DNA of 64,000 nt from Bacteroidales bacterium (GTDB lineage Bacteria; Bacteroidota; Bacteroidia; Bacteroidales; UBA1402): positions 138,962 through 202,961 of the forward strand of contig JAFUDT010000013.1 of NCBI GenBank assembly GCA_017464285.1, read 5' to 3'. Numbering within the stretch: position 1 is the first letter of the stretch; each line of letters begins with the position of its first letter. Made by a program: the position numbers and the translations under genes. The notes under the pieces are model-generated. The model was given only the letters and a program-made list of their open reading frames with translations. It did not search any database and was not told where the DNA came from. Below, piece after piece: positions 43,093 through 64,000 of the stretch.

Positions 43093-44505
43093 TCAGATAC
43101 CTTTCCCGAGCAGTATCGGCTTGACGGTGGAGACAAGTATGGTCAGATCCATCAACAGTGACTGGTTTTTCAGGTAGATTATATCGTAGTCGAGCCGCTC
43201 GATCATTTTCCCGATGGTGTCGGCATAGCCGTACTTGACTTCACCCATGGAGGTCAGGCCCGGCTTGACCTGCCATACCAGCTGATAATGGGGAGCCTGG
43301 CTGATGATCTGCCGGGCGTAGAATTCTCTTTCCGGCCTTGGACCGACCAGGGACATTTCTCCTTTGAGTACATTGTAGAGCTGCGGCAGCTCGTCCAGAC
43401 GATATTTGCGCATAAGACGGCCGAAGGGCGTGACGCGGTTGTCGTTGAGTGTGGACAGCAGGGGACCATCGGCCTCGGCATCGGTGTACATGGTCCTGAA
43501 CTTGATGATATTGAACGGTCTGGCGTTTTTACCCAGCCGCTCCTGTCGGTAGAGGACCGGCCCGGGAGAATCGCGACGCACGCGCAGGGCCAGATAGAGG
43601 AACAGCGGACTTAGCAGAGTCAGTCCCAAGATGGAAATCAGCAGGTCGGCGGTACGTTTCAGATGCAGTTCGGCGACGGACATCCCAGCCGGGGTCAGGC
43701 GGCGTAGCGGCACTCCGGAGACCGAATACAGCGAGACATCCGACAGCAGGACTTCCTGCGGGTGCATAGTGGTCTGTATCTCCAGTCCGTAGGCATACAG
43801 CCGGTCGGTCAGGTGACGGATATAAGCATCATCACGCTGGTCAGAGGCGATGATCAGGCTCTCGGTCTGTCGCCGGGCAATGATCTGGTCCAGGTCGTCC
43901 AGAGTTCCCAGTACCGGCCCCTGTACCAGCACTCGGTCCTCCGGGGCTGTCTTGACAAAGCCCTGAGCCAGATAGGGGGAACTGTTCTTGCGGCGGCTCA
44001 GGTAGCGGCGTATGTCCTCGGCCTCCTGTCCGCATCCGATGACCAAGGCGGAAACCCCGACCTTGCCGGCGGCATGTCCGTTGAGCATGGACAGGGTCTG
44101 TATGAGACGCAGCAGCAGCGTGCAGAAGAAATGTATGAGCAGGAGCCCTGCCAAGACACTGTAGAACTGGGTATATTCGGCCGGATAGTCGTTGATGATG
44201 ACCATGAAGAAAATCAGCAGGCTGCCGACCAGGGTGCTGAAAAGGGTGGACAGCAGGTCGGAAGAGCTGGTTTTACGCCTGGGCTGGTGGTAGTAGCCCA
44301 GAAAGGCATAGAGCAACACCCATAGAACGGGCAGTGTCAGGCTCATCGTATAGGCCTTGGGATTGTTCAGAAAATCCCAGGCCGAGGCAAAATCGATGGT
44401 GGAACGAAACTCGTAGAAACGGAACACGTTGAACAGCTGCCAGGCAATCAGCGCCGACAGATAGTCCAGGCAGATGTAGCGTAGTATGCGTTTGTGGTCG
44501 TTCAT
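43093..44505 (-). CDS. polyprenyl-phosphate sugar-1-phosphate transferase (WbaP/EpsB-like initiating transferase)
   Basis: ORF 43093..44871. The ATG at 44505 (MNDHKRILRY) avoids overlap with tsaC. N-terminal TMs. C-terminal Bac_transf domain (FNIIKFRTMYTDAE, LDELPQLYNVLKGEMSLVGPRPE). Confidence 0.9.
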   Translation of the reverse strand: MNDHKRILRYICLDYLSALIAWQLFNVFRFYEFRSTIDFASAWDFLNNPKAYTMSLTLPVLWVLLYAFLGYYHQPRRKTSSSDLLSTLFSTLVGSLLIFFMVIINDYPAEYTQFYSVLAGLLLIHFFCTLLLRLIQTLSMLNGHAAGKVGVSALVIGCGQEAEDIRRYLSRRKNSSPYLAQGFVKTAPEDRVLVQGPVLGTLDDLDQIIARRQTESLIIASDQRDDAYIRHLTDRLYAYGLEIQTTMHPQEVLLSDVSLYSVSGVPLRRLTPAGMSVAELHLKRTADLLISILGLTLLSPLFLYLALRVRRDSPGPVLYRQERLGKNARPFNIIKFRTMYTDAEADGPLLSTLNDNRVTPFGRLMRKYRLDELPQLYNVLKGEMSLVGPRPEREFYARQIISQAPHYQLVWQVKPGLTSMGEVKYGYADTIGKMIERLDYDIIYLKNQSLLMDLTILVSTVKPILLGKGI

Positions 44506-44578
44506 CTTACTTTTGGTTTGGCGTTGTCCGGAATCCATCCCCGAAAACGGGGTTCCCTCATGGTCAAATCCCTCGCTG

Positions 44579-51004: not shown

Positions 51005-51064
51005 ATGAACAGTTTTACTTTTGCATACTTCTATTACGGCTTTTACTTTAGCTTCGACAGTTAA
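51005..51064 (+). CDS. 19-codon Phe/Tyr-rich leader peptide (candidate attenuation leader)
   Basis: ATG AAC AGT TTT ACT TTT GCA TAC TTC TAT TAC GGC TTT TAC TTT AGC TTC GAC AGT TAA translates to MNSFTFAYFYYGFYFSFDS*. It has 6 Phe and 4 Tyr in 19 residues. It lies between a promoter-like element and a terminator, directly upstream of aromatic amino-acid genes. Confidence 0.7.
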   Translation: MNSFTFAYFYYGFYFSFDS

Positions 51065-51120
51065 GGGCAGGTCGTCTTGTATGTGAGAGTTCCGAGAAAA
51101 CGATAACACGAAATATGAGG

Positions 51121-51149
51121 TCCCGCCCAGACAAGGCGGGATTTTTTTT
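51121..51149 (+). terminator. intrinsic terminator (attenuator) between the leader ORF and the aminotransferase gene
   Basis: Stem tcccgcc / ggcggga with loop cagacaa, followed by T8 (51142..51149). It ends 15 nt before the ATG at 51165. Confidence 0.8.
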
Positions 51150-51164
51150 AGACAACCAGAGAAT

Positions 51165-52391
51165 ATGGGAGACCAGAGATTGAATCCAGACAGCGGCGCC
51201 AAAGGCGGGGAAGCACCCTTGGCCGGCATCCGTCCGGCCGAACGCCTGCAGGAACTGAGCGAATATTACTTCTCGCGCAAACTGCGCGAAATCGCCCGAC
51301 GCAACGAGCAGGGCCAGGACATCATCAGCCTGGGTATCGGCAGTCCCGATTGCCCGCCCAGTGAGGCTGCCATCGCTGTCTTGTGCGAGCAGGCCCGGCG
51401 CAGCGATACGCACGGCTATCAGCCTAACAACGGTACAAAAGAACTCAGACAGGCCTTTGCCGGCTGGTATGACCGCTGGTATGGCATCCGTCTGGACCCG
51501 GAGCGGGAAATCCTGCCTCTGATGGGTTCCAAGGAAGGGGTGCTGCATGTATCGATGGCTTTCCTGAATCCTGGTGACGGAGTGCTGATCCCCAATCCGG
51601 GCTATCCGACCTACCGGGCTGTGAGTAAATTGCTTCAGGCACGCATCGTTGAATATGATCTGGACGAGAACCGCGGCTGGTGGCCCGATTTCGAAGCCTT
51701 GGAAGCCGGCGACCTGAGCGGTGTGAAACTGATGTGGGTCAACTATCCCAACATGCCGACCGGTGCACCGGCCAGCCGTGAACTGTTCGAGGAGCTTGTC
51801 GCCTTCGGCCGCCGTCATGGGATCGTTATCGTACATGACAATCCTTACAGCTTTATCCTGAACGAGCATCCGCTGAGCATCCTCTCGGTCGAGGGAGCGA
51901 GAGACATTGCCATCGAGCTCAACTCGATGAGCAAAGCCCACAACATGCCAGGCTGGCGTCTGGGCATGCTGGCCGCCAATCCCGAGTTCATGTCCTGGAT
52001 CATGAAGGTCATCACCAATATCGAGTCGGGGCAGTTCCGCCCCATGCAACTGGCGGCAGTGCGCGCCTTGCAGGCAGACAAAAGCTGGTATGACGGGATG
52101 AATGCCGTCTATCGCCGGCGCAGAGAACTGGCCGAAGCCATCATGACAGAGTTGGGTTGCCGCTATGATCCGCGTCAGGCGGGAATGTTCCTGTGGGGAC
52201 GTATCCCCGATGACTGCCAGAGTGCCGAGAGCCTATCCGATCGGGTGCTCGACCTGGCCAGGGTTTTTGTCACTCCAGGCTTTATTTTCGGGAGTCGGGG
52301 AGAGCGTTATCTGCGCCTGTCGCTCTGCTGCTCGGAAGAAAAACTCTCGGAGGCACTCAAGCGTATCCGTGAGGCCTTGAAGAGGGGGTAA
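51165..52391 (+). CDS. class I/II PLP-dependent aminotransferase (aromatic/prephenate aminotransferase by context)
   Basis: 408 aa. PLP-lysine context NSMSKAHNMPGWRLG, plus NYPNMPTG. First enzyme gene of the operon with DAHP synthase/CM and prephenate dehydrogenase. Confidence 0.88.
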   Translation: MGDQRLNPDSGAKGGEAPLAGIRPAERLQELSEYYFSRKLREIARRNEQGQDIISLGIGSPDCPPSEAAIAVLCEQARRSDTHGYQPNNGTKELRQAFAGWYDRWYGIRLDPEREILPLMGSKEGVLHVSMAFLNPGDGVLIPNPGYPTYRAVSKLLQARIVEYDLDENRGWWPDFEALEAGDLSGVKLMWVNYPNMPTGAPASRELFEELVAFGRRHGIVIVHDNPYSFILNEHPLSILSVEGARDIAIELNSMSKAHNMPGWRLGMLAANPEFMSWIMKVITNIESGQFRPMQLAAVRALQADKSWYDGMNAVYRRRRELAEAIMTELGCRYDPRQAGMFLWGRIPDDCQSAESLSDRVLDLARVFVTPGFIFGSRGERYLRLSLCCSEEKLSEALKRIREALKRG

Positions 52392-52441
52392 GGTCAAATA
52401 GAACAACCATTCAATAAACACATAGACAAATCTTTCCTACT

Positions 52442-53521
52442 ATGTCAGACATTAAATTCAACAGAGAACTGCTGCCGGGGCTGGATCTGAGCCGTCCGAT
52501 GGTGATTTCAGGACCCTGCAGCGCTGAAACAGAGGAACAAGTAATGACCACTGCCCGTCAGCTGGCAGCGATGGGTGTCAAGATATTCCGGGCCGGCATC
52601 TGGAAGCCGCGTACCCGGCCGGGTGCCTTCGAGGGAGTTGGGGCGGAAGGTTTGTCCTGGCTCAAGCGTGTCAAGCGAGAGACGGGTATGGCCGTCTCTA
52701 CCGAGGTGGCTTCGGCCCAGCATGTCTACAGTGCCCTGAAGGCCGGCGTGGATATGCTCTGGATAGGAGCCCGCACTTCGGTCAATCCCTTTCTGATGCA
52801 GGAAATCGCCGAATCCCTGCAGGGGGTCGATGTCCCTGTCCTGGTGAAAAATCCGGTCAATCCCGACCTGGATCTGTGGACCGGGGCCATCGAACGGCTG
52901 GCCAAGTCGGGTCTGGACAAAATAGGTATCATACACCGTGGTTTCAGCGCCGGCGACAAAACCATCTACCGCAATCATCCCAAATGGCAGGTCCCCATTG
53001 AACTGCACCGCCGTTTCCCCGAACTCCCGATGTTCTGTGATCCCAGTCACATGGGCGGCCGTCGGGAGCTGATTGCTCCTCTTTCGCAGCAGGCCATGGA
53101 TCTCGGTTTTGACGGACTGTTCATCGAGACGCACTGCGACCCGGATAAGGCCTGGAGCGACGCTGCGCAGCAGATAACCCCCGAAGTGCTCAAGCTGATT
53201 CTCTCGACGCTGGTCATCCGTGACGGAGGTAAGCAGCACCTGTCCAAGCTGGCCGAATACCGTACCAGCATCGACGAACTTGACGACAAGCTGGTCGAAC
53301 TGCTGGGCAAGCGTATGGAAGTCTGCCGCGAAATCGGCTGTTTCAAGCGGGACAATAATATGCAGGTGCTGCAGGCCGGCCGCTACAACGAGATCATGGT
53401 CAAACGTCAGCAGCTGGCCCAGTCCATGGGCATCGGGGAAGACTGTGTCCAGAAGATTTTCGAGGCCATCCACGAGGAGTCGGTCCACCAGCAAATGGAA
53501 ATAGTCAACGGAACCAAATAA
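52442..53521 (+). CDS. bifunctional 3-deoxy-7-phosphoheptulonate (DAHP) synthase / chorismate mutase
   Basis: 359 aa. N-terminal type I-beta DAHPS/KDO8PS-like barrel (GPCSAE, FRAGIWKPRT, CDPSH). C-terminal AroQ chorismate mutase helix bundle (IDELDDKLVELLGKRMEVCREIGCFK). Confidence 0.92.
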   Translation: MSDIKFNRELLPGLDLSRPMVISGPCSAETEEQVMTTARQLAAMGVKIFRAGIWKPRTRPGAFEGVGAEGLSWLKRVKRETGMAVSTEVASAQHVYSALKAGVDMLWIGARTSVNPFLMQEIAESLQGVDVPVLVKNPVNPDLDLWTGAIERLAKSGLDKIGIIHRGFSAGDKTIYRNHPKWQVPIELHRRFPELPMFCDPSHMGGRRELIAPLSQQAMDLGFDGLFIETHCDPDKAWSDAAQQITPEVLKLILSTLVIRDGGKQHLSKLAEYRTSIDELDDKLVELLGKRMEVCREIGCFKRDNNMQVLQAGRYNEIMVKRQQLAQSMGIGEDCVQKIFEAIHEESVHQQMEIVNGTK

Positions 53522-53530
53522 CTGAGAACT

Positions 53531-54304
53531 ATGCGTATAGCTATCCTTGGAGCTGGGAAAATGGGCTCCTTCTTTGCCCGCGTGCTCTGTCTGCAGCACG
53601 AAGTGGCGCTTTACGATGCAGACGCATCCCGCCTGGAGGGCTTGGGTTATATCCATCCGCTGCATCAGCTGGAGGAAATCTCCGGTTTTCAGCCCGAGCT
53701 GCTAATTAACGCCGTGACGCTTAAATTCACCTTGGAAGCCTTCTCCCAGGTGCTGCCCTTGCTGCCGGCCGACTGCGTTATCAGTGATATAGCCAGTGTT
53801 AAGACAGGTCTGTCGGACTACTACCGGCAAAGCGGTTTCCGCTATGTCTCTTCTCATCCTATGTTCGGCCCCACTTTTGCCAATCTGGAAAAACTCTCCT
53901 CGGAAAATGCCATTGTCATCACCGAAGGCGACGAGCAGGGCAGGGCCTTTTTCAGGGACCTGTATCTGTCCCTGCATCTGAATCTCTATGAGTACAGTTT
54001 TCAGGAACACGACAGGACGGCCGCCTATTCGCTGTCCATACCTTTTGTCTCGACACTGGTCTTTTCGGCTGTCATGAAACACCAGGATGCTCCCGGTACG
54101 ACTTTCAAGAAACACCTGGACATCGCCAAGGGACTGATGAGCGAAGACGACTACCTGCTGCAGGAGATCCTCTTCAATCCGGAAACACCTGCCCAGATCA
54201 ACCAGATCTGCATCGAACTGCTCACCTTGCAGCAGATTATCCGCGACCGCAATGCCTCGGATATGAAAAACTATCTCAATAAGATACGGAAGAATTTGGA
54301 ATAG
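53531..54304 (+). CDS. tyrA: prephenate dehydrogenase
   Basis: 257 aa. Rossmann start MRIAILGAGKMGSFFA. SHPMFGP motif. Confidence 0.88.
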   Translation: MRIAILGAGKMGSFFARVLCLQHEVALYDADASRLEGLGYIHPLHQLEEISGFQPELLINAVTLKFTLEAFSQVLPLLPADCVISDIASVKTGLSDYYRQSGFRYVSSHPMFGPTFANLEKLSSENAIVITEGDEQGRAFFRDLYLSLHLNLYEYSFQEHDRTAAYSLSIPFVSTLVFSAVMKHQDAPGTTFKKHLDIAKGLMSEDDYLLQEILFNPETPAQINQICIELLTLQQIIRDRNASDMKNYLNKIRKNLE

Positions 54305-54427
54305 CCGCCCGAAAGCCTTATTTTCGCACTTTCATGAGATTTGAGGCATGAAACATGCCCTCCCGGCCGGGCTGTCTTCGGAAGGCCGGGCTGTGAATGA
54401 ATCCGGACAGTTGAATGTGAGTGCCAT

Positions 54428-55174
54428 ATGAGATTTTTAGGACTGATTCCCGCCAGATACGCTTCAACCCGTTTTCCGGGGAAGCCCCTGGCCGACATCG
54501 GCGGCAAGCCGATGATCCGCAGAGTGTATGAACAGGTGTGCGGTTGCCTGGACGCGGTGTGCGTGGCGACAGACGATGAGCGTATTTTCAAGGCTGTCGA
54601 AGATTTCGGCGGCAGGGTCGTGATGACCTCCGAGGCTCACCGCAGCGGCACGGACCGCTGTGCTGAGGCCATGGAAAAGTTGCCCGGCGATTTTGACGTC
54701 ATTATCAATATTCAGGGGGACGAACCCTTTGTCCGTCCCTCTCAGATTGCTCAGCTGAAAGCCTGCTTTGATTCTCCGCAGACAGAGATTGCCACACTGG
54801 TAAGGGCTTTTCGCCCGGAAGAAGGACTGGAGGCCCTGATGAATCCCAATTCGCCAAAGGTGGTGCTCAACAGCCGGGGAGAGGCTATGTATTTCAGCCG
54901 CTCGGTGATTCCTTTCCTGCGCCGCCTTCCACAGGAGGAGTGGCTGCAGACTCATGTCTTCTACAAGCATATCGGTATCTATGCTTATCGGCGAGACGTG
55001 CTCTCCCGTCTGGCGGCCCTGCCTCAGACTCCGCTCGAACAGGCCGAATCGCTGGAGCAGTTGCGCTGGATTGAGAGCGGCTACCGTATCCGCGTGGCGC
55101 TGACCGAAAGTGAGAACCTGGCAGTCGACACCCCCGAGGATCTGCAGCGAATATTGGCCAGCGGCCTGCTGTAA
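54428..55174 (+). CDS. kdsB: 3-deoxy-manno-octulosonate cytidylyltransferase (CMP-KDO synthetase)
   Basis: MRFLGLIPARYASTRFPGKPLADIGGKPMI, and NIQGDEPF. Confidence 0.95.
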   Translation: MRFLGLIPARYASTRFPGKPLADIGGKPMIRRVYEQVCGCLDAVCVATDDERIFKAVEDFGGRVVMTSEAHRSGTDRCAEAMEKLPGDFDVIINIQGDEPFVRPSQIAQLKACFDSPQTEIATLVRAFRPEEGLEALMNPNSPKVVLNSRGEAMYFSRSVIPFLRRLPQEEWLQTHVFYKHIGIYAYRRDVLSRLAALPQTPLEQAESLEQLRWIESGYRIRVALTESENLAVDTPEDLQRILASGLL

Positions 55175-55189
55175 TCGCTTTGCTTCCCC

Positions 55190-56686
55190 ATGAAAAAACT
55201 GATAGAATTGCAGAATGCCGTACCGCGGCTGCCGCACATGAGGCTGGCCGCTCCGGTCGATTTTGCCTTGTCGGAAGGGGAGCATGTGGCCGTTACCGGA
55301 CTGAATGCTTCGGGCAAGACCCTGCTGGTCAATATGCTCACGGGTAAGTCTCTGCTGGCCCGGGGCAGCGCCCTTTTTCACCGGGCCCAGGCCATACGTT
55401 ACCTGCCATTTCGCGATGCTTACGGCACATCCGATGCCGGCTACTACTATCAGCAGCGTTGGAATATGGGCGATCAGGGAGAACTCACTGTGGTGAGTGA
55501 CAGCCTGGGGCTGTGCACCGATGCCGGGTTACGTGATGAACTGATTCAATTATTTGATTTCAAGGAACTTATTGATAAGCCTCTGATTTATCTTTCGAGT
55601 GGCGAATTGCGTAAGTTTCAATTGATGAAGGCTCTATTCGCAGATCCGGAGGTCCTGATATTGGACAATCCGTATATAGGGTTGGACGCTGCGACTCGCC
55701 AGTCGCTCACCGAGCTGCTCGAACGCCTGGCCCGGCGCAGACATCTCAGTCTGGTTCTGGTCACGCCCTTGCTGGATGACATCCCCCGGTTCGTCACACA
55801 CGTCTACGTGATGAAGGACCTGGTCTGTCTGCCGCGCATGACACGCGCGGCCTATTTGGACAGCCTGGATATGTCGTGTTATGAACGTCCCCTCGAGCGG
55901 GAAAAGCAGGAGGCTATTCTGGCCCTCCCGGCTTCAGAGTCCCTGTCCGTGCTTTCACCTGAGGGTCTCCTTTTCCCCGTGGTCAGGATGGAGCAGGTCA
56001 GTCTTCGTTACGGCCGGCGTACCATCTTGCAGGACATCGACTGGGAAATTGCTTCCGGGGAGCGCTGGGCCCTGTCGGGCGAGAACGGCGCCGGAAAATC
56101 CGCTCTGCTCAGCCTGGTCTGTGCCGACAATCCGCAGGCCTACGCCTGCCGCCTGTCGCTTTTCGGCCGGAGACGGGGCAGCGGAGAAAGTATCTGGGAG
56201 ATAAAGAAACATATCGGCTATATCAGTCCGGAAATGCACCGGGCCTACATGAAGAACTGTCCGGCCGTGGATATCGTGGCCAGCGGACTGCACGACAGCA
56301 TCGGCCTGTATGTGCGTCCGCACGCACAGGATTACAGAATTTGCGATTTCTGGATGAACATCTTTGATATCGCCCCCCTCAGGGACCGTCCTTTCCTGGA
56401 GCTCTCCAGTGGTGAGCAACGGCTCTGCCTGCTGGCGAGGGCTTTTGTCAAGGATCCGGCCCTGCTGGTACTTGACGAGCCTCTGCACGGGTTGGATACT
56501 GTCTGCCGTCAGCGTGTCCGCAGCATCATCGAGTGCTTTTGCCGCCGGCCGGGCAAGACCCTGGTCATGGCCTCGCACTACCGCGAAGAATTGCCTGAGG
56601 GCATACAGAAGGAGCTGACACTGGCCAAGGACCATTCCTATCATATCGGCCCCTGGGAGGGCCTCATGGCTGGAAAAGTACAATAA
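55190..56686 (+). CDS. ABC ATPase with two nucleotide-binding domains (ModF-like, no permease partner)
   Basis: 498 aa. Walker A GLNASGKTLL and GENGAGKSALL. Signatures LSSGELRKF and LSSGEQRLC. Walker B ILDNPYIGLD and LVLDEPLHGLD. Confidence 0.88.
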   Translation: MKKLIELQNAVPRLPHMRLAAPVDFALSEGEHVAVTGLNASGKTLLVNMLTGKSLLARGSALFHRAQAIRYLPFRDAYGTSDAGYYYQQRWNMGDQGELTVVSDSLGLCTDAGLRDELIQLFDFKELIDKPLIYLSSGELRKFQLMKALFADPEVLILDNPYIGLDAATRQSLTELLERLARRRHLSLVLVTPLLDDIPRFVTHVYVMKDLVCLPRMTRAAYLDSLDMSCYERPLEREKQEAILALPASESLSVLSPEGLLFPVVRMEQVSLRYGRRTILQDIDWEIASGERWALSGENGAGKSALLSLVCADNPQAYACRLSLFGRRRGSGESIWEIKKHIGYISPEMHRAYMKNCPAVDIVASGLHDSIGLYVRPHAQDYRICDFWMNIFDIAPLRDRPFLELSSGEQRLCLLARAFVKDPALLVLDEPLHGLDTVCRQRVRSIIECFCRRPGKTLVMASHYREELPEGIQKELTLAKDHSYHIGPWEGLMAGKVQ

Positions 56687-56690
56687 ATAA

Positions 56691-58013
56691 TTGAAAAATG
56701 GCGTTATTAATTATATGACGGACAGAACGCATCCCCCTATGCTTCAAGCCCTGGAAAATGTGGATATTCCCGAGCTGAACCGCCTCTTGCTGCCGGGCGG
56801 CGTCGAGGTGGACTATCTTGACACCGGCTGCCGGAATCTGGTTCGGGTAGACCTCATGTGCCGTGCCGGAGCTCTCTTTCAGCCGCGACCGCTGGTGGCC
56901 ATGCTGACCAATCTCTTGCTCAAGGAGGGCTGCCGGGGTATGTCTTCGGCCGAGATAGCGGAAAAGTTCGATTCCTTCGGCGCCTTTCTGTACTGCTCCA
57001 GCGGCATGGAATACACCTACGTCAATCTGTGTACGACCAGGAAGTTCTACCGACAGACCCTTACACTGCTGCGTGACATCTGGCAGAGCCCGACCTTTCC
57101 GGAGCATGACCTGAAGGTGGTGCTTGAGCAGCGCTACCAGCAGATGATAATCGACCGCCGGAAGGTCAAGGTCATGTCGTCGCTCAAAATGAACGAACTG
57201 CTTTTCGGGCCTTCCCATCCTTACGGCCGTGCCTTGGAAGAAGCCGACTTCGAACATTTCGACCGGGGGCTGCTGGCCGATTTCCACGCCCGTTATTACG
57301 GACCTGGACGTACACGTCTGGTACTGACGGGCGATGTGGATCAGGAGGTACTTGATATAACCGGGCAGGTTTTCGGCCTGCACGGCGTCGGTACAGCCTC
57401 GGTGCAGGATGACACTCAGGACTATCCCCTGGCGCAGCCGTCGGCCTCTCACCGCTGTTTCCTGCCCAAGGCGGACAGCCTGCAGGCTTCTGTCCGTTTT
57501 TCCCTGCCGACAGTGGGACAGGAGCATCCCGACTTTATGGGACTGAAGGTGCTCAATGCCCTGTTGGGAGGCTATTTCGGCAGTCGCCTGATGGCGACTG
57601 TCAGGGAGGAAAAGGGCTATACTTACGGCATTTTCTCGACGCATACGGTCTACCGGAAAGATTCTTACATCGACATTGAGACCCAGACGGCCCTGGAATA
57701 TGTGCCGGCCCTGATCGAGGCTGTTTTCCAGGAGATGGACAAACTGAAAAAGGAGCCTGCCGGGGCAGAGGAGATGCAGCTGCTGCGCAACTATCTCTCG
57801 GGCGAGTATGCCCGCATGATGGATGGTCCCTTTGCCCTGTCCGACCTTTATATAGCTGCCGAATCGGTAGGCATGGACATGACCGGCTACCGTCGTCAGC
57901 TCGAGGTGATGAACCGTATCAGTGCGGAAGAACTGCAGGATCTGGCCCGCCGCTATTTCCACGAGGATGATTTTTACCTGGTGGTGGCGGGCGGCACCCA
58001 GTCTCCCTTTTGA
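56691..58013 (+). CDS. M16 (pitrilysin/insulinase) family protein, apparently non-catalytic
   Basis: 440 aa (TTG 56691; alternative in-frame ATG 56715). Two-lobe M16 pattern (LNALLGGYFGSRLMATVREEKGYTYG). The HxxEH zinc site is replaced by a ...MLTNLLLKEG context. Confidence 0.78.
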   Translation: MKNGVINYMTDRTHPPMLQALENVDIPELNRLLLPGGVEVDYLDTGCRNLVRVDLMCRAGALFQPRPLVAMLTNLLLKEGCRGMSSAEIAEKFDSFGAFLYCSSGMEYTYVNLCTTRKFYRQTLTLLRDIWQSPTFPEHDLKVVLEQRYQQMIIDRRKVKVMSSLKMNELLFGPSHPYGRALEEADFEHFDRGLLADFHARYYGPGRTRLVLTGDVDQEVLDITGQVFGLHGVGTASVQDDTQDYPLAQPSASHRCFLPKADSLQASVRFSLPTVGQEHPDFMGLKVLNALLGGYFGSRLMATVREEKGYTYGIFSTHTVYRKDSYIDIETQTALEYVPALIEAVFQEMDKLKKEPAGAEEMQLLRNYLSGEYARMMDGPFALSDLYIAAESVGMDMTGYRRQLEVMNRISAEELQDLARRYFHEDDFYLVVAGGTQSPF

Positions 58014-58025
58014 TTTTCGACCCTC

Positions 58026-59519
58026 ATGGAAAAGCAGGAGCATTCATACGGACAGATTGTGAAGTCCACCGGCATTTTCGGCGGATCGCAGGTCTTCAAC
58101 CTTCTGCTGGGCATCGTGCGCAACAAACTGGTCTCAGTACTGCTGGGACCGGCTGGTGTGGGTATCATCGGTCTGTATCAGTCTGTCATCGACACGGTCC
58201 GTTCGGCGACCGACCTGGGGCTGAGCTTCAGTTCGGTCAGGGATATGTCCTCTGCTGCCGCTTCGGGTGACCGGATCAGGATGGCACGCACGGCCAAGGT
58301 GCTGAGGCGTTGGATTCTCTTCACCTCGGTTTTCGGTGCGGCATTCACCCTGGTGTTTTCCAGGCAGATCAGCCGGCTGGCCTTCCAGGATACGAAGCAT
58401 GTCTTTGCTATCTGCCTGCTGTCGGTCTGCGTGCTGATGTCCTCCCTGTCGGCCGGTCAGCGTGCCCTGCTGCAGGGAATGCGCTGCATCGGTGATATGG
58501 CGAAGGCTTCGGTCATCGGCAGCGGCCTGTCCTGTGTTGTGGCAGTGGCGCTCTATTACTTTTTCGGGCAGAAGGGTATTATCCCGGCTTTCCTGGCAAC
58601 TGGTCTGATTATGCTGCTCTGCAGCTCCTGGTATGCTCTGCGGCTGAAATTCGGCCATGTCTCCCTGACAATCAGAGAAACACTTCTGCACGGCCGGGGG
58701 ATGGTGACACTGGGCTGCTACAGCATGGCCGTCGGTCTGGTCAGTTCCTTGTTCGCCCTGCTTATCCGCAGCCTGATCGAACAATGGTCGGATTTGAGTA
58801 CTGTCGGCCTGTTCCAGTCCTCGAACAGTATCGCCGCCACTGCCTTGTCGTCGATATTCGCGGCCATGGCCGCCGATTACTACCCGCGGCTCTGCAGCGT
58901 GGGTAGCGACAAATTGCGCATGAGCCGCTATGTCAACGAACAGATGCGGGTGGCCATGCTGCTCTCTGCTCCGGTATTGGTACTCATGCTGGTGCTGGCT
59001 CCCTGGATTCTGCGGATATTCTGTTCGGGAGAATTTGTCCAGGCCCGGGATCTGCTGCGCTGGCAGCTGCTGGGCTGTTTCCTGAAAGTGCTCAACTGGC
59101 CCTTGGGCTATGTCCCGCTGAGTAAGGGCAAAGGGTTGGTCTTCATGCTCACCGAGCTGCTTTGGCACGCTCTGTATCTGGGACTGAGCTGTCTGCTCTG
59201 GCCCCTGGACGGGCTGGAAGGCATCGGCATGGCATACTTGGGAGCCCATCTTCTCTATACGGTGGTCATGCTGTTTGTCGTCAGAAAGATGTGCGATTTC
59301 CGCCTGTCGTCCTACAACCTTGTCCTGGGCCTGGTGACAGGGCTGCTGACCCTGCTGGCCTTCCTCCTGCCCCTGACAGGACTGCGCCTCTGTTGGCAAT
59401 ACCTCCTCTCGGGGCTGATTCTTGCCGTCACGGGAGCCGTGTCGCTGCGTGAACTGAACCGGATATGGCCCTTGAAGGATCATCTGGGCCACTGCCTGCA
59501 AAAATTGCGTTCCAACTAA
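58026..59519 (+). CDS. Wzx-type oligosaccharide flippase (MOP superfamily)
   Basis: 497 aa. About 12 or more TM helices. N-terminal GQIVKSTGIFGGSQVFNLLLGIVRNKLVSVLLGPAGVGIIGLYQS is typical of O-antigen/capsule translocases. Confidence 0.85.
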   Translation: MEKQEHSYGQIVKSTGIFGGSQVFNLLLGIVRNKLVSVLLGPAGVGIIGLYQSVIDTVRSATDLGLSFSSVRDMSSAAASGDRIRMARTAKVLRRWILFTSVFGAAFTLVFSRQISRLAFQDTKHVFAICLLSVCVLMSSLSAGQRALLQGMRCIGDMAKASVIGSGLSCVVAVALYYFFGQKGIIPAFLATGLIMLLCSSWYALRLKFGHVSLTIRETLLHGRGMVTLGCYSMAVGLVSSLFALLIRSLIEQWSDLSTVGLFQSSNSIAATALSSIFAAMAADYYPRLCSVGSDKLRMSRYVNEQMRVAMLLSAPVLVLMLVLAPWILRIFCSGEFVQARDLLRWQLLGCFLKVLNWPLGYVPLSKGKGLVFMLTELLWHALYLGLSCLLWPLDGLEGIGMAYLGAHLLYTVVMLFVVRKMCDFRLSSYNLVLGLVTGLLTLLAFLLPLTGLRLCWQYLLSGLILAVTGAVSLRELNRIWPLKDHLGHCLQKLRSN

Positions 59520-59525
59520 AAGCCT

Positions 59526-60485
59526 ATGAACAAGCCATTGGTATCGGTTATTGTCCTGACATACAATCAACAGGATTATATCGCCCGCAATCTGGACGCC
59601 ATCCTCTCTCAGGAAGTCGGCTTCGACTATGAAATCGTGCTGGGTGAGGATGCCTCGCAGGACCGCACGGCCGATATATGCCGCGAGTATCAGGCCCGCT
59701 ATCCCGACCGGATAGTCCTGCAGCTCAATGAGCAGAACAAGGGGCTGGTGCGCAACTATGCCGACTGTGTGCGCATGAGCCGTGGCAAGTACATCGCCGA
59801 CTGCGGAGGAGACGACTATTGGCTGGATCCCTGTAAAATGCAGCGCGAAGTGGACATGCTGGAACGTCACCCTTCCCTGAGCCTGGTGTATGCCAATTAC
59901 CGGAACTATCACCAGCAGACAGGAATCTTTGACCGTCCCCATGCGGAGTTCGGTGAAGATATCCTTGATTTGGAAGACTACGGTCCCCAGACGGCTGCCC
60001 GTTTCCTGGACGGCTGCTGGAATCCGCCCATCGTCCTGTCGGCCGCCTGCTACCGCAAAAGTATGCTGGAAGAGGTCTGGCAGCAGCATCCCGACCTGTT
60101 TGAAGGGGAGGGCTGTGTGGCCGAGGATATTCCCGTAACGGCGATTCTGCTCAGCCGGGGGCCGGCCTGCTATCTGGCCCATGACCATCTGGTCTATCGG
60201 GTGCTGGACGAATCACTGAGTCATTCCGGAAATCAGACACGCTACTACCGTTTTGCGGTGGATTGTTTCTTCCAGAGGATGCAGGTGGCTGAATATCTTG
60301 GAATTAAACATGAAAGCCTAAAGCATGCTCTTCAGTGCTGGCATGCCGATTACCTGCATTATGCCTTCCTGCATCGGGACGGCCTTATGGCACAGCGGCT
60401 GGCCGAAGCCATAGCCCGTGTGGGCTACGAGCCCTCCTGTAAAGAGAAACTGAAATACGCTTTTTTGAAACGCTTCGGAAAATGA
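59526..60485 (+). CDS. glycosyltransferase family 2
   Basis: VSVIVLTYNQQDYIARNLDAILSQ, EIVLGEDASQDRT, and DXD-type CGGDDYW. Confidence 0.9.
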   Translation: MNKPLVSVIVLTYNQQDYIARNLDAILSQEVGFDYEIVLGEDASQDRTADICREYQARYPDRIVLQLNEQNKGLVRNYADCVRMSRGKYIADCGGDDYWLDPCKMQREVDMLERHPSLSLVYANYRNYHQQTGIFDRPHAEFGEDILDLEDYGPQTAARFLDGCWNPPIVLSAACYRKSMLEEVWQQHPDLFEGEGCVAEDIPVTAILLSRGPACYLAHDHLVYRVLDESLSHSGNQTRYYRFAVDCFFQRMQVAEYLGIKHESLKHALQCWHADYLHYAFLHRDGLMAQRLAEAIARVGYEPSCKEKLKYAFLKRFGK

Positions 60486-61657
60486 AGGAAGGTCTGTACA
60501 ACATACTGATAGTGCTCAACGCATTTCCGGCCTTAGGCGGCGTGGCCAAGGTCAGCCGTCTGCTGGCCGCCCGCTGGCAGGAGCAGGGGCATCGCGTCGA
60601 TATACTCTCCCTGAAAGCCGAAGCCGGCGCTGAAGCCGGCGGTTTTACCGGGCGTTGCCTTTATCTGCCCGACAGACAGGACGCAGACAGTCCGGCCAAC
60701 CGGGAGTTTATCCGTCGGCTGGTGCTGGAGGAGGATTATCAGATCATCGTCAATCAAGGCACAGTCTCTTCTGTCTTCCTGGATTTCATCGGTGACAGGG
60801 AGCATCGGGTGGTCAATGTCCTTCACGGCTGTCCTGCCTGGCTGCCACAACGGGCGCGGCACATGAGTTTCGTTCGGCAGGTCTGGCCCTCTCACAGTCT
60901 GAGAATGTGGCTGCGCTATGCCTTTGTCAAGTGTCTGCCTTTCCTGTCAGACAGGCGTGTCAAGAATCGTCTGAAAACCGAAATCGAGGCTTCGTCGGCC
61001 TATGTAGTCCTGACCGACAGCTACAAACGACAGATAGAAAAGTGGTTCTACGGCGGCGTGCCGCAAGACCGTATCCGGGTGATACCCAACCCTGTGCCCC
61101 CTGTGTCCGAACCGAAAGACCAAGGGCCGGCAGTGCTCTACGCCGGTCGCTACACCAAGGCAGACAAGCATCCGGAACGTTTGCTCCATATCTGGCAGCA
61201 AGTCGGCCCCAGCCATCCCGACTGGAGGCTGTGCTTCTGTGGCGAAGGTCCGCAGGAGCAGTCTTTACGCCGGCTGGCCCGTCGTCTGCGACTGACCCGG
61301 GTCGATTTCCTGCCGCCCTGCTGGGATGACAGCCTCTATGAGGGATGTTCACTGCTATGCCAGACCTCCTCTTATGAAGGCATGAGCCTGGCGGTGCTGG
61401 AAGCGCAGGCGGCCGGGGTGGTGCCGGTGGTCTTCGACAGCGGCCCCTGGCTGCAGATCGCCACTGTCCCCGGACAGACGGCCGTGGTGGTGCCGGCCTT
61501 CGATCTGAAGGCTTTTGCCCGAGAACTGTCGTCTCTGATGGAAGATGCAGGACGTCGGGCGCAGATGGCCCGGGAGGGCCGCAGGCATGTCGTCCGTTTT
61601 GATCCCGCTGCCATCGCCGCCCGTTGGACTGAATTGTTCAAATCTTTGCCACTATGA
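60482..61657 (+). CDS. glycosyltransferase family 4 (GT-B, retaining type)
   Basis: 391 aa. C-terminal EX7E region SSYEGMSLAVLEAQAAGVVPVV. ATGA overlaps with both neighbours. Confidence 0.87.
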   Translation: MKEGLYNILIVLNAFPALGGVAKVSRLLAARWQEQGHRVDILSLKAEAGAEAGGFTGRCLYLPDRQDADSPANREFIRRLVLEEDYQIIVNQGTVSSVFLDFIGDREHRVVNVLHGCPAWLPQRARHMSFVRQVWPSHSLRMWLRYAFVKCLPFLSDRRVKNRLKTEIEASSAYVVLTDSYKRQIEKWFYGGVPQDRIRVIPNPVPPVSEPKDQGPAVLYAGRYTKADKHPERLLHIWQQVGPSHPDWRLCFCGEGPQEQSLRRLARRLRLTRVDFLPPCWDDSLYEGCSLLCQTSSYEGMSLAVLEAQAAGVVPVVFDSGPWLQIATVPGQTAVVVPAFDLKAFARELSSLMEDAGRRAQMAREGRRHVVRFDPAAIAARWTELFKSLPL

Positions 61658-62544
61658 TGAAACTTGAATGCCTGATATCGACCTGTGGCAGCCGACTGGC
61701 TGATGTTCCCGCCCTGCTTCTGGCACCGGATCCCTCAATGGGATATCTGGTCTCGCACCAGGTCCGGTCCGATCAGAGGGATGAGTTGCCGCCGGCACAG
61801 CTCCTACGCGAAGATGTCCGTTATGCCGCCACCTCCACGACCGGCATAGCGGCCAACCGCAACCACTGTCTGGACCGGGCCTGTGCTGAACTCTCCTGGC
61901 TGCTCGACGACGATGTCAGGCTGCTGCCTGAGGCTCCGGCCCTGATTTGCCGGTTTTTCGAGCAGCATCCCGAGACAGATGTAGCCTGCTTCAGGATTGA
62001 AACCCCTCAGGGAGAGCCCTACCGTGCCTATCCAGTCTCGGCCTGCCGGCTGGCGACCATTGAGGATGTCCGTCAGGTCAGCTCCATAGAGATTGTCTTT
62101 CGCACGCAGCGTGTCATCGGCCGGGGCATTCGTTTTGACGAACGCTTCGGCCTGGGCAGGCCCTGGCCCTGTTCGGAGGAATTCCTGTTCCTGGTGGCCT
62201 GTCTCAGGGCTGGCCTGAGGATTGACTATTACCCTTTGACAACAGTGGTGCACCCCAAGGAAAGCACCACCAGGCGACGCAGTCAGGCAGAGCCGGCCAT
62301 GCTGGAGAAATCCGGAGCTGTGAATGCCGTGCTGTACGGCTGTCCGGGAGCCTATCTGCGCAATCTGCTCTCTGTGTTCAAAGCCGGTGACCTCAGGCGG
62401 GAGGTGCAACTGTCGGCCTGGGAGTTCCTGCGCTGCAAGAACCGGGGTACCCGTCAGGCATTGCGCGGAACGCCTCCGGCACCCGGCGCTGAACCGGCTT
62501 TCGAATCCCATCCGACGTCCGACGGAACGGTTGCGGGCGAATAA
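61654..62544 (+). CDS. GT-A fold glycosyltransferase (GT2-like)
   Basis: 296 aa. GIAANRNHCLDRA...LLDDDV (DXD). Weak family assignment. Confidence 0.68.
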   Translation: MMKLECLISTCGSRLADVPALLLAPDPSMGYLVSHQVRSDQRDELPPAQLLREDVRYAATSTTGIAANRNHCLDRACAELSWLLDDDVRLLPEAPALICRFFEQHPETDVACFRIETPQGEPYRAYPVSACRLATIEDVRQVSSIEIVFRTQRVIGRGIRFDERFGLGRPWPCSEEFLFLVACLRAGLRIDYYPLTTVVHPKESTTRRRSQAEPAMLEKSGAVNAVLYGCPGAYLRNLLSVFKAGDLRREVQLSAWEFLRCKNRGTRQALRGTPPAPGAEPAFESHPTSDGTVAGE

Positions 62545-62557
62545 AGCATCGATCCTT

Positions 62558-64000
62558 ATGACAGACTGGAAGAATGTACTGAAAAAACAGCTGGCCAAGG
62601 CCGGCTATCTGCTGCGAAGACGCAGCGTGGTGGAGCGTAACGAGCAGCTGGCCCGGGAAAGTCTGGCCCTGGCCCGTGAAAGCACGCCGGAAGGCATTGC
62701 CTCGGTAGTGTTCTCCTGCAACCGGGCCATGCAGCTGCAGGCCTTTCTGGAATCCTACCGCCGGCAAGTGGCGCATCCCGGCCGTCTGTATATCCTCTAT
62801 CGGGCTACGGACAGCGCGCATGGGCGCAGTTATCGGGAACTGGAACAGGAAATGGCTGCCGGTTCGCTCTCGGACCTGCTCGTCTGGGTCGAGGAAGATG
62901 ATTTCCGTTCCCAGCTGCTGGATATCATCGAGCACTGTGCCTGTCGCACGGTGGCCCTCTACGTCGATGACATGCTCTTTCTGCATCCTTTCGACTATGA
63001 AACGCTCAAAGGGGTGGATACCACACGCTTTATTCCTTCTCTGTGCCGTGGAAGAGACATGACCTACAGCGCGGTGCTGGGCAAGCCGATCGATCTGCCC
63101 GATTTGAGTCCTTCGCCTTATCCCTCCCTGCTGGCCTTCCGCTGGAACCAGTATACCGAACTCTCCGATTGGACCTATCCTCTGGGAGTGTCTGGCTATT
63201 GCTACGGAAGGGAGGAGCTGCTGGCGCTGTGCCGGCGGATAGACTTCCGCCATCCGAATTCCCTGGAAAGCGCCATGCAGGCCTACCGGGATGTGTTCGT
63301 CCTCAGGATGGGTCTGTGCTGCGAACAGGCTGTCTGCTGCTGTGTCCATGCCAACCGGGTGCAGACCGAAGTGGCCAACGCCCATTTGGGCTATTTCACG
63401 GCAGACGAGCTGCTGACCCGCTGGCAAAACGGCGAACGCATCGACCTCAGTCCCTTTGACGGTCTTTCCCGCAGTGAAGCCTGGTGCCGCCGATACAGCT
63501 TTGTCCCGCGTCGGCGCATGCCTGCCGAATGGGAACCGCAGTCTTTCGTGCAGCTCACCTGGCCTCATGAGGATACCGACTGGTGCGATATCCTGCCACA
63601 GGTGACCGAGTGTTTTGTGACCCTGGCCCGAACTATCTTGCGCTATGAGCCTCTCTTGGTCGTATGCCACGATGCCGCTCTGGTGCGACGGCTGATCGAT
63701 GCACCCTCCGATGCTCCCCTCAGACTGTGCGAACTGCCCACGGACGACACCTGGGCCCGCGATCATGGGGGCATCTGCCGCTGTGACGGACAAAAGACAG
63801 TCGTCTGTGATTTCGGCTACAATGCCTGGGGTGGCAAGTTCCCCTATGAAAAGGACAATCGCATTACCGCCAGGCTGCAGGAGGCCGGCTGTTTCGGCCA
63901 GCGTGAATATGCCGACTGTCTGGACTTCGTCCTTGAAGGTGGAAGTCTTGAATCGGACGGCCAGGGAACGCTGCTCACCACGTCAAGTTGTCTGCTCTCG
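62558..64000 (+). CDS. fusion ORF: N-terminal GT-A-like domain (aa 1-320) + agmatine deiminase/PAD_porph-family domain (from aa 321); 3' end outside the window
   Basis: I checked this frame line by line. It is open from ATG 62558 to 64000 (481 codons, no stop), so it is absent from the ORF track. From ATG 63518 it reads MPAEWEPQSFVQLTWPHEDTDW, DDTWARDHGG, FGYNAWGGKFPYEKDN and LEGGSLESDGQGTLLTTSSCLL, which are agmatine-deiminase family hallmarks. Upstream it reads IASVVFSCNRAMQLQAFLESY and ALYVDDM, which is GT-A/DXD-like. Confidence 0.8.
   Translation, partial: MTDWKNVLKKQLAKAGYLLRRRSVVERNEQLARESLALARESTPEGIASVVFSCNRAMQLQAFLESYRRQVAHPGRLYILYRATDSAHGRSYRELEQEMAAGSLSDLLVWVEEDDFRSQLLDIIEHCACRTVALYVDDMLFLHPFDYETLKGVDTTRFIPSLCRGRDMTYSAVLGKPIDLPDLSPSPYPSLLAFRWNQYTELSDWTYPLGVSGYCYGREELLALCRRIDFRHPNSLESAMQAYRDVFVLRMGLCCEQAVCCCVHANRVQTEVANAHLGYFTADELLTRWQNGERIDLSPFDGLSRSEAWCRRYSFVPRRRMPAEWEPQSFVQLTWPHEDTDWCDILPQVTECFVTLARTILRYEPLLVVCHDAALVRRLIDAPSDAPLRLCELPTDDTWARDHGGICRCDGQKTVVCDFGYNAWGGKFPYEKDNRITARLQEAGCFGQREYADCLDFVLEGGSLESDGQGTLLTTSSCLLS

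Follow-up and report, generated by a model that had tools for sequence, protein, structure and literature searches.

A conserved in-frame fusion of a GT-A-like domain to an agmatine deiminase at the end of a Wzx glycan locus in rumen Bacteroidales

Introduction

The polyamine route of Bacteroides runs through SpeA, AguA and NCPAH (PMC10135574). For the agmatine deiminase of Medicago (MtAIH), the catalytic residues are Cys366, His224 and Asp226, with Asp94 binding the guanidinium group and Asp220 and Asp89 the amine (PMC6447857), and solved bacterial AguA structures include those of H. pylori (3HVM, 2CMU), P. gingivalis (PgAIH, 1ZBR) and C. jejuni (6B10). Here we describe a gene in which an enzyme of this kind forms the C-terminal half of a larger protein. 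The gene lies at the end of a 64,000-nt stretch of a Bacteroidales bacterium (lineage UBA1402; assembly GCA_017464285.1, contig JAFUDT010000013.1, positions 138,962 to 202,961 of the forward strand), which we call the window and number from its first letter. Its product is a two-domain cytoplasmic enzyme of 663 aa from rumen Bacteroidales, in which a domain with a predicted GT-A glycosyltransferase (GT) fold precedes an agmatine-deiminase-type domain at a Wzx-type glycan locus.

The deiminase domain resembles the described AguA enzymes over its full profile and in its catalytic and binding residues, and the orthologous domain of a close relative (locus L002) has an estimated identity near 55% to 1ZBR. 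Unlike those enzymes, it follows a predicted GT domain of 320 aa in one chain, has lost its first native residues and has no adjoining aguB, and the clade to which it belongs carries G511S, T524M and T603S and has lost C539. PPAD, a pentein-fold enzyme of the same Pfam family (PF04371), is secreted and has several domains. It was not among the solved-structure matches of the L002 deiminase domain at E <= 0.001, and the window protein, unlike PPAD, shows no extra domains, its residues 320-662 being covered by the deiminase profile alone. With GT-A enzymes (ABO and alpha3GalT of GT6, GnT-I and POMGNT1 of GT13, SpsA of GT2) the N-terminal domain shares, in its predicted structure, a Rossmann-like alpha/beta/alpha fold and an Asp-Asp pair after a core beta-strand; unlike them, it has no sequence relation to any family in Pfam, NCBIfam or the PDB, and its TM-scores to them lie at 0.3-0.44.

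As a locus, the closest described system is the LFG O-glycosylation locus of Bacteroidota, which begins metG-wzx and ends in two conserved GT genes, the last encoding a GT2/GT-A fucosyltransferase (BF4306, Tanf_01305 GtfE) (PMC8698959, PMC12871550). The window locus is similar in having a small Wzx and GT set without Wzy or Wzz, in keeping its position across related genomes and in ending, before the fusion gene, with a GT4 and then a GT2-like gene (~280-296 aa). It differs in having kdsB and an M16 peptidase gene upstream, no metG among the window open reading frames (ORFs) of 315-702 aa tested, and a flippase that scores 31.7 bits against a cut-off of 720 on the model NF058658, its best model being WzxE at 82.5 bits. 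We take this resemblance as a lead only. Closest in architecture to the fusion itself are two sister forms, represented by protein P0036 and locus L094, whose deiminases belong to the same clade (59-65% identity) and stand in the same kdsB-M16-Wzx-GT2-GT4-GT2-like locus. In P0036 the deiminase is joined, through a linker of about 30 aa that the window protein lacks, to the product of the GT2-like gene; in the window that gene stands on its own, upstream of the fusion. The GT-A::deiminase form is a new domain architecture built from known kinds of enzyme.

An open and conserved fusion frame

A first-pass annotation made from the window sequence had read the + strand from ATG 62558 as open up to the window end at 64000, and had proposed that a GT-A-like domain and an agmatine-deiminase-family domain are joined there in one frame. 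Translation bears the reading out: all 481 codons are sense codons, and at codon 321 (nt 63518) stands the Met of ...YSFVPRRR/MPAEWEPQSFVQLTWPHEDTDW, within the longer context ...AWCRRYSFVPRRR/MPAEWEPQSFVQLTWPHEDTDW... The annotation had placed the end of the ORF and the catalytic Cys beyond 64000, and both are supplied by P0032, a protein of 663 aa found in a search of representative proteins, which matches the window at 100% identity through residues 1-481 and closes with ...IRQHGSLHCSTMQYR (...GSLHCSTMQYR), with the Cys at position 657. Locus L090 matches the window identically across the 1443 nt that they have in common; the fusion stop therefore falls at window-equivalent coordinate 64549, past the window end.

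We examined where the frame begins and whether the opposite strand competes with it. Upstream of 62558 the frame stays open for a further 78 codons, to ATG 62324 (62324-62557, + strand), overlapping the 3' end of the GT2-like gene, and L002 has a similar upstream extension with a GTG (L002:482). Both the gene calls and the aligned homologues speak for a start at 62558, and ATG 62324 is probably unused. The only ORF predicted here by program, a 466-aa ORF on the antisense strand, has no Pfam match; homology and purifying selection are carried by the sense frame, and shadow ORFs of this type stand opposite many genes in the window (55% G+C).

The exact 663-aa protein is recorded on six contigs, and the four loci with this protein that we fetched come from four samples, one in an ENA assembly (a 557-kb contig; ERZ27256836, contig k141_347201) and three in Logan assemblies. 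Extending the comparison to other genomes, as the first-pass annotation had proposed, revealed the full fusion in one frame at 77-78% identity in two GenBank metagenome-assembled genomes (JAGDCW01 and JAFSRR01): yak rumen yielded RGIG10352 (L002), and goat reticulum RGIG3412 (L003). In both the junction reads (V/E)PRRRMPAEWEPQ, and the ORFs are 667 aa long when counted from MTDWK. The junction of the window is shared by L001, L002 and L003, and synonymous differences around it are numerous in these three diverged relatives. Between the window and L002/L003 the synonymous divergence (dS) is about 1, and the ratio of nonsynonymous to synonymous divergence (dN/dS) is 0.06-0.17 for the N-terminal domain, 0.17-0.22 for the deiminase domain and 0.09-0.13 across the 60 codons around the junction (30 to either side). 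These ratios indicate purifying selection on both halves.

L001 is 99.8% identical to L003 and lacks one T in a TTT run (L001:2000-2010) inside the N-terminal domain; the deletion cuts that domain short while the deiminase frame is still open. Either the assembly is at fault, or this is a natural variant in which the two halves are un-fused.

The junction

The first-pass annotation had suggested that two adjacent genes fused by loss of a stop codon, and had seen in Met321 the opening of a canonical deiminase N terminus. The deiminase core does begin at this residue, which is nonetheless not an ancestral start. In stand-alone enzymes the aligned residue is Leu in 51 sequences, Phe in 25, Ala in six and Trp in one, and, in the sequences with a readable stop-delimited ORF and an ATG in it, the first ATG mostly lies 2-13 residues upstream of this column. 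Met321 as the original aguA start codon was accordingly rejected, the column being a Leu/Phe position of the enzyme core. Homologues of the N-terminal domain terminate in ...Y(S/T)Fxx(R). The fusion thus runs through the N-terminal domain to its last conserved residue, then two Arg residues, and directly into the deiminase core, the native first residues of which are gone. Because the join is linker-less and the first deiminase residues have been removed, a plain point mutation of a stop codon does not explain it, and a small deletion or frameshift across overlapping genes is the more likely origin. The N-terminal domain and the deiminase were never found as adjacent separate genes.

We next considered whether translation might also begin within the fusion. 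The 20 nt preceding ATG 63518 contain 25% A+T and not a single A, as compared with 62% +/- 13% A+T at 38 gene starts of the window, 37 of which are richer in A+T than this site, and a mean of 43% at 466 internal ATGs. Together with the missing promoter motif TAnnTTTG (described with the locus below), this low A+T content speaks weakly against an independent internal start. Protein records treat the site otherwise: P0179 (L002:1490-2533; GenBank JAGDCW010000053.1), labelled 'agmatine deiminase family protein', has 347 aa and begins with the internal Met. For the N-terminal domain of L002, which lies in the same frame, the collection searched contains no protein, and the fusion is hidden from that record.

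The deiminase domain

Consistent with the family assignment made in the first-pass annotation, PF04371 (PAD_porph) matches window residues 320-481 over profile positions 1-152 of 321 (E values 7e-45 and 1.4e-45), and on P0032 it scores 373.8 bits and extends over residues 320-662 and profile positions 1-320 of 321. The two agmatine-deiminase models of NCBIfam are the sole further family matches of the window protein. Among solved structures, the L002 deiminase domain matches 1ZBR (P. gingivalis, E 1.8e-99), 2CMU and 3HVM (H. pylori), 6B10 (C. jejuni) and 1XKN (C. tepidum).

By motif register alone, the Medicago residues correspond to C657, H521, D523, D402, D517 and D397, all of which are present. 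C657 stands in GSLHC, H521 and D523 in GDDTDGHID, and D402 in TWARD, and of these four only D402 lies inside the window. The equivalents of the terminal-amine Asp residues are kept as well: D517 precedes H521 by four residues, and D397 precedes D402 by five. Because every agmatine-contacting residue is intact, the deiminase half most likely still hydrolyses agmatine. The score on TIGR03380, 206 bits, does not reach the equivalog cut-off of 381.8. We considered this shortfall as a sign of new function and rejected it, since two canonical aguB-linked Bacteroidales AguAs fall short equally (203 and 209 bits); low scores characterise the Bacteroidales enzymes as a whole and are not due to the fusion.

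The N-terminal domain

Residues 1-320 match no GT family, and indeed no model, in Pfam or NCBIfam, so that the profile comparison suggested in the first-pass annotation identified the C-terminal half alone. A search for homologues returned 31 sequences. The nearest of them, P0001, is the fusion itself in a frameshifted copy, and the other 30 are proteins of 259-330 aa that stand alone and match no Pfam domain. In an alignment of 29 sequences, F52, S53, R56, A57, M58, Q59 and L60 are invariant, as are D137 and D138, which follow a predicted strand (131-136) at its end.

An AlphaFold2 model built from the homologue alignment has an alternating beta/alpha core and high confidence (predicted local distance difference test (pLDDT) 91, predicted TM-score (pTM) 0.89). 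Foldseek returned 255 PDB matches for this model at E <= 0.001, and the best 50 of the 255 are all GT-A glycosyltransferases, including ABO GTA/GTB (GT6), alpha3GalT, GnT-I, POMGNT1 and SpsA. The model supports the assignment of the domain to the GT-A fold as an unclassified sequence family. The GT-A-like reading of the first-pass annotation is in this way upheld by predicted structure, while the domain is invisible to sequence search. A profile of the 29 sequences found no match among PDB sequences at E <= 10, and a sequence link between this domain and GT2 was rejected on the null results of the profile search and of an hhalign comparison.

In three unrelated contig groups examined, the stand-alone homologues sit between a DegT-type aminotransferase gene and wzx, with FdtA, hexapeptide-acyltransferase and GT2 genes alongside. 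This context would fit a transferase of a 3-acylamido-3,6-dideoxyhexose. The window cluster is without the sugar-synthesis genes seen beside these homologues.

Modules resembling the N-terminal domain also occur in larger proteins: P0116 (1025 aa) has one at residues 724-982, fused to GT4 and TPR domains, and P0085 (466 aa) has one together with a C-terminal extension that matches no Pfam family. A 313-aa ORF without Pfam match in loci L099-L101 was considered as a further homologue and ruled out by tblastn at 1e-6.

Relation to canonical aguA loci

We compared the window with 78 other aguA loci from species-representative genomes. All of their aguA ORFs stand alone, as the first-pass annotation had supposed for the family; the complete ones are 339-407 aa long, three of the 78 being cut by contig ends. 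None of these loci carries a homologue of the N-terminal domain. In 58 of the 78, aguB, the CN_hydrolase gene for N-carbamoylputrescine amidase (about 292 aa), lies directly 3' of aguA, and at several further loci a similar ORF is slightly more distant. Two canonical contig groups have a divergent queC next to aguA-aguB, and one queC-type group adjoins a gene of the saccharopine-dehydrogenase family, a type that includes carboxyspermidine dehydrogenase. At the fusion, efflux-pump genes follow in place of aguB, and tblastn of aguB against the window gave chance matches only.

The search of representative proteins returned 5311 matches at E <= 0.001. Architectures were read from the best 150 of these, among which GT fusions take two forms, GT-A::deiminase and GT2-like::deiminase. 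The second is P0036 (626 aa; L087:8628-10508, also in L088 and L089), in which a GT2 domain (PF00535, 28.8 bits) is fused to a PAD_porph domain 62% identical to that of the window over the region inside the window. The N-terminal half of P0036 is homologous to the window's GT2-like gene (31% identity, E 2e-29). The next closest relative, P0180 (L094, 65% identity), is a separate deiminase gene: at L094:316-2185 the last 11 nt of the GT2-like gene (316-1173) are also the first of the deiminase gene (1163-2185), which is read in another frame, and a single indel would fuse the pair.

In a neighbour-joining tree of 84 deiminase sequences, the five glycan-linked lineages were monophyletic in 200 of 200 bootstraps. 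The unfused L094 deiminase joined the window clade in 141 of the 200, and the GT2-like::deiminase form branches outside these. Three states therefore exist at the 3' end of the locus (a separate overlapping gene, GT2-like::deiminase and GT-A::deiminase), and with the tree they imply that fusion took place independently at least twice. All five clade members keep 74 of the 92 sites at which aguB-linked enzymes show at least 95% conservation. T603S, also shared by the clade, was given no weight as evidence of altered specificity; Ser occupies this site in the agmatine deiminases of plants and Enterococcus. From gene order and phylogeny, the clade appears to have left the aguA-aguB pairing, and it sits at the 3' end of a kdsB-Wzx-GT2-GT4-GT2-like locus.

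The glycan locus

The position of the fusion at the end of a cluster of a Wzx-type flippase and three GT genes, noted in the first-pass annotation, agrees with the Pfam assignments (Table 1). Genes for KdsB, an ABC-F-type ATPase and an M16 peptidase lie upstream of wzx. The Wzx-GT2-GT4 segment is syntenic with L003, L087 and L099-L101, and the order of GT4 followed by the GT2-like gene is kept in L003, L087, L094 and L099-L101. The more distant loci L099-L101 have kdsB, Wzx-GT2-GT4 and the GT2-like gene in this order without a deiminase. In L087-L089 the order is kdsB - M16 peptidase - (FdtA) - Wzx - GT2 - (ATP-grasp) - GT4 - GT2-like::deiminase - membrane-fusion proteins - MacB - ABC - OEP.

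Table 1. Features of the fusion gene and its neighbourhood, in window coordinates
Feature	Position	Strand	Basis or remark
Wzx-type flippase	58026-59519	+	Pfam
GT2	59526-60485	+	Pfam
GT4	60482-61657	+	Pfam
GT2-like glycosyltransferase gene directly upstream of the fusion	61654-62544	+	PF00535, 23.7 bits (weak)
Antisense ORF, 466 aa	62393-63793	-	shadow ORF, not a gene
N-terminal GT-A-fold glycosyltransferase-like domain, aa 1-320 (predicted)	62558-63517	+	AlphaFold2 and Foldseek
FSxxRAMQL motif, first beta-strand/helix, family signature	62711-62737	+	invariant, alignment
VDDM motif (D137, D138), candidate DxD-type metal/nucleotide-sugar site	62963-62974	+	invariant, alignment
Fusion junction PRRR/MPAEWE, linker-less, no stop	63506-63535	+	translation, relatives
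First 161 residues of the PAD_porph (agmatine-deiminase-type) domain	63518-64000	+	PF04371; domain runs to window-equivalent 64549
TWARD motif, guanidinium-binding Asp402, with D397 just 5'	63749-63763	+	aligned with 1ZBR, 2CMU, 3HVM

Downstream of the deiminase, both fused lineages have three membrane-fusion-protein genes, a MacB (FtsX) gene, an ABC ATPase gene and an outer-membrane-factor gene (L090:12113-19315, L087:10766-18040). Synteny reaches beyond the glycan genes.

Two genes of the L087 locus are not in the window cluster, an ATP-grasp ligase gene between GT2 and GT4 (L087:6173-7420) and a gene for a 299-aa double FdtA (L087:2816-3715). The ATP-grasp ligase could in principle amidate a sugar carboxylate with an amine. 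On the opposite strand of the window, about 14 kb upstream of the Wzx cluster, a gene at 43093-44538 encodes a Bac_transf and CoA_binding_3 protein of the undecaprenyl-phosphate sugar phosphotransferase type, which, to judge by its domains, is a possible initiating transferase.

On the + strand, the last match to the Bacteroidetes -7 consensus TAnnTTTG is at 51016-51023, and none follows from 51024 to 64000. This 13 kb without the motif spans 12 co-directional genes, from an aminotransferase gene at 51165 through the fusion, and suggests either long co-transcription or non-consensus promoters.

Discussion

The fusion is very probably real and conserved, with both of its halves functional, as judged from its recurrence and its pattern of substitution. 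On the simplest history that the loci and the tree suggest, aguA would have left the aguA-aguB operon and settled at the 3' end of a kdsB-...-Wzx-GT2-GT4-GT2-like locus, where it abutted or overlapped the upstream GT gene. One lineage would then have fused it once to the GT2-like gene, and another would have joined it, in frame and without a linker, to a newly inserted GT-A gene, giving GT-A::deiminase. Each half most likely keeps its ancestral chemistry. The N-terminal domain would transfer a sugar from a nucleotide sugar onto the lipid-linked oligosaccharide of the locus, and the C-terminal domain would hydrolyse agmatine to N-carbamoylputrescine and ammonia through a thiouronium intermediate at Cys657; the fusion itself would mainly enforce co-expression and membrane-proximal placement. 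A conserved fusion in which each half retains its own chemistry is the explanation that we prefer overall, with rather better than even confidence. We put the chances that the deiminase is uncoupled from the glycan, or linked to it by co-expression only, at even or slightly above, and regard it as evenly balanced whether the enzyme still serves polyamine synthesis with no mechanistic coupling to the glycan.

Several observations weigh against this explanation. No aguB was found in the 64-kb window or in the flanks of L002, L003, L087, L090 and L094. The mean distance from the glycan-linked clade to the canonical enzymes is 0.74, as compared with 0.60 among the canonical enzymes, and the clade appears to be somewhat faster-evolving. 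Its members have in common G511S and T524M, the latter beside the guanidinium-binding D523, at sites that are otherwise invariant, and C539 is replaced by Pro in four members and by Tyr in L087. That the same deiminase was fused twice, independently and to different GT folds, hints at coupling and not at coincidence. For the N-terminal half, the GT-A assignment comes from a predicted model whose top Foldseek matches, with E values of about 1e-6, have modest TM-scores, and hhalign gave a probability below 1% for the domain against the window's GT2 and GT2-like proteins.

Most of these points would find a place if the deiminase clade had been recruited to the glycan pathway and its fusion to a GT channelled a step at the membrane. 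In one possible version, which refines an idea that the first-pass annotation had offered as speculation, the enzyme would act on an agmatine-type (4-aminobutylguanidine) substituent or supply N-carbamoylputrescine, giving a glycan with an undescribed ureido- or polyamine-type decoration. Monophyly of the clade in every bootstrap, its residence in a glycan locus without an adjoining aguB, the recurrence of fusion to different GT domains with an overlapping-gene state in between, and the changes near the active site all favour such a step, as does the rarity of the architecture, absent from the 78 other aguA loci and restricted to two forms among the best 150 of the 5311 representatives. The ATP-grasp ligase of the sister locus, able in principle to attach an amine to a carboxylate, would suit it too. 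Yet all contacts to free agmatine are unchanged, including the terminal-amine residues D517 and D397, which fits a small free substrate. The synteny, moreover, covers kdsB, the M16 peptidase gene and the MacB-type efflux pump as well as the GT genes, and linkage alone is weak evidence for coupling because these unrelated neighbours are syntenic too. Canonical aguA heads its operon, with a divergent queC upstream in the two groups examined; because only a relocated aguA has the opportunity for an N-terminal fusion, recurrent fusion is explicable without a shared function. In the literature searched, neither a fusion of a GT with an agmatine deiminase nor a glycan bearing agmatine or carbamoylputrescine came to light, an absence that is not proof, and we know of no glycan with either substituent. 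Taken as a whole, recruitment with channelling seems doubtful to us, and coupling of the deiminase to the glycan in any form remains on the unlikely side. Slightly less likely again is the specific proposal that a Wzx-dependent glycan locus (possibly for an outer O-glycan or a lipopolysaccharide-type oligosaccharide) captured the clade, which would perform or feed an undescribed decoration such as a ureido or polyamine substituent.

Two further explanations concern the gene product itself. A sequencing or assembly error masking a stop or frameshift between two genes, or a chimeric contig, might have created the fusion, and the single-base indel elsewhere in the gene in the contig of L001 shows that such errors or variants occur in these data. 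The identical protein was, however, obtained from four independently assembled samples, and the three diverged relatives share the junction despite many synonymous changes nearby. Because the protein recurs in independent assemblies and the junction is kept at low dN/dS, error is excluded, and with it the hidden stop that the first-pass annotation had asked to have ruled out; artefact is effectively refuted and its probability negligible. Alternatively, translation from Met321 might give a 343-aa, near-normal deiminase besides or instead of the 75-kDa fusion. Met321 is kept in three lineages of the fused clade where stand-alone enzymes have Leu or Phe, NCBI annotates the yak-rumen orthologue (P0179) from this Met, and the deiminase frame stays open in L001 despite the deletion upstream. 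Against a second product stand the A-free region 5' of ATG 63518, poorer in A+T than nearly all gene starts and than the internal-ATG mean, the lack of the Bacteroidetes -7 motif on the + strand anywhere in the cluster, the Phe that the sister fusion P0036 has at this position, and the purifying selection on the junction codons, the same as on the domains. We consider two products improbable, and internal initiation of this kind would in any case be a side possibility, of low probability, that does not exclude the fusion.

Automatic annotation hides fusions of this kind: the yak-rumen orthologue is listed as a plain 347-aa deiminase. Whichever explanation holds, the N-terminal domain defines a widespread, predicted GT-A family that the curated profile libraries searched (Pfam and NCBIfam) miss, and the three family members examined adjoin wzx in loci for sugars apparently of the 3-amino-3,6-dideoxyhexose type. 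If the halves merely share a transcript, the locus is an example of tightly packed, overlapping genes that fuse repeatedly. If the deiminase was instead captured by the glycan pathway, the two GT fusions would be a Rosetta-stone record of deiminase-glycan coupling, and would suggest that abundant rumen Bacteroidales modify their surface glycans in a new way, with input from arginine and polyamine metabolism.

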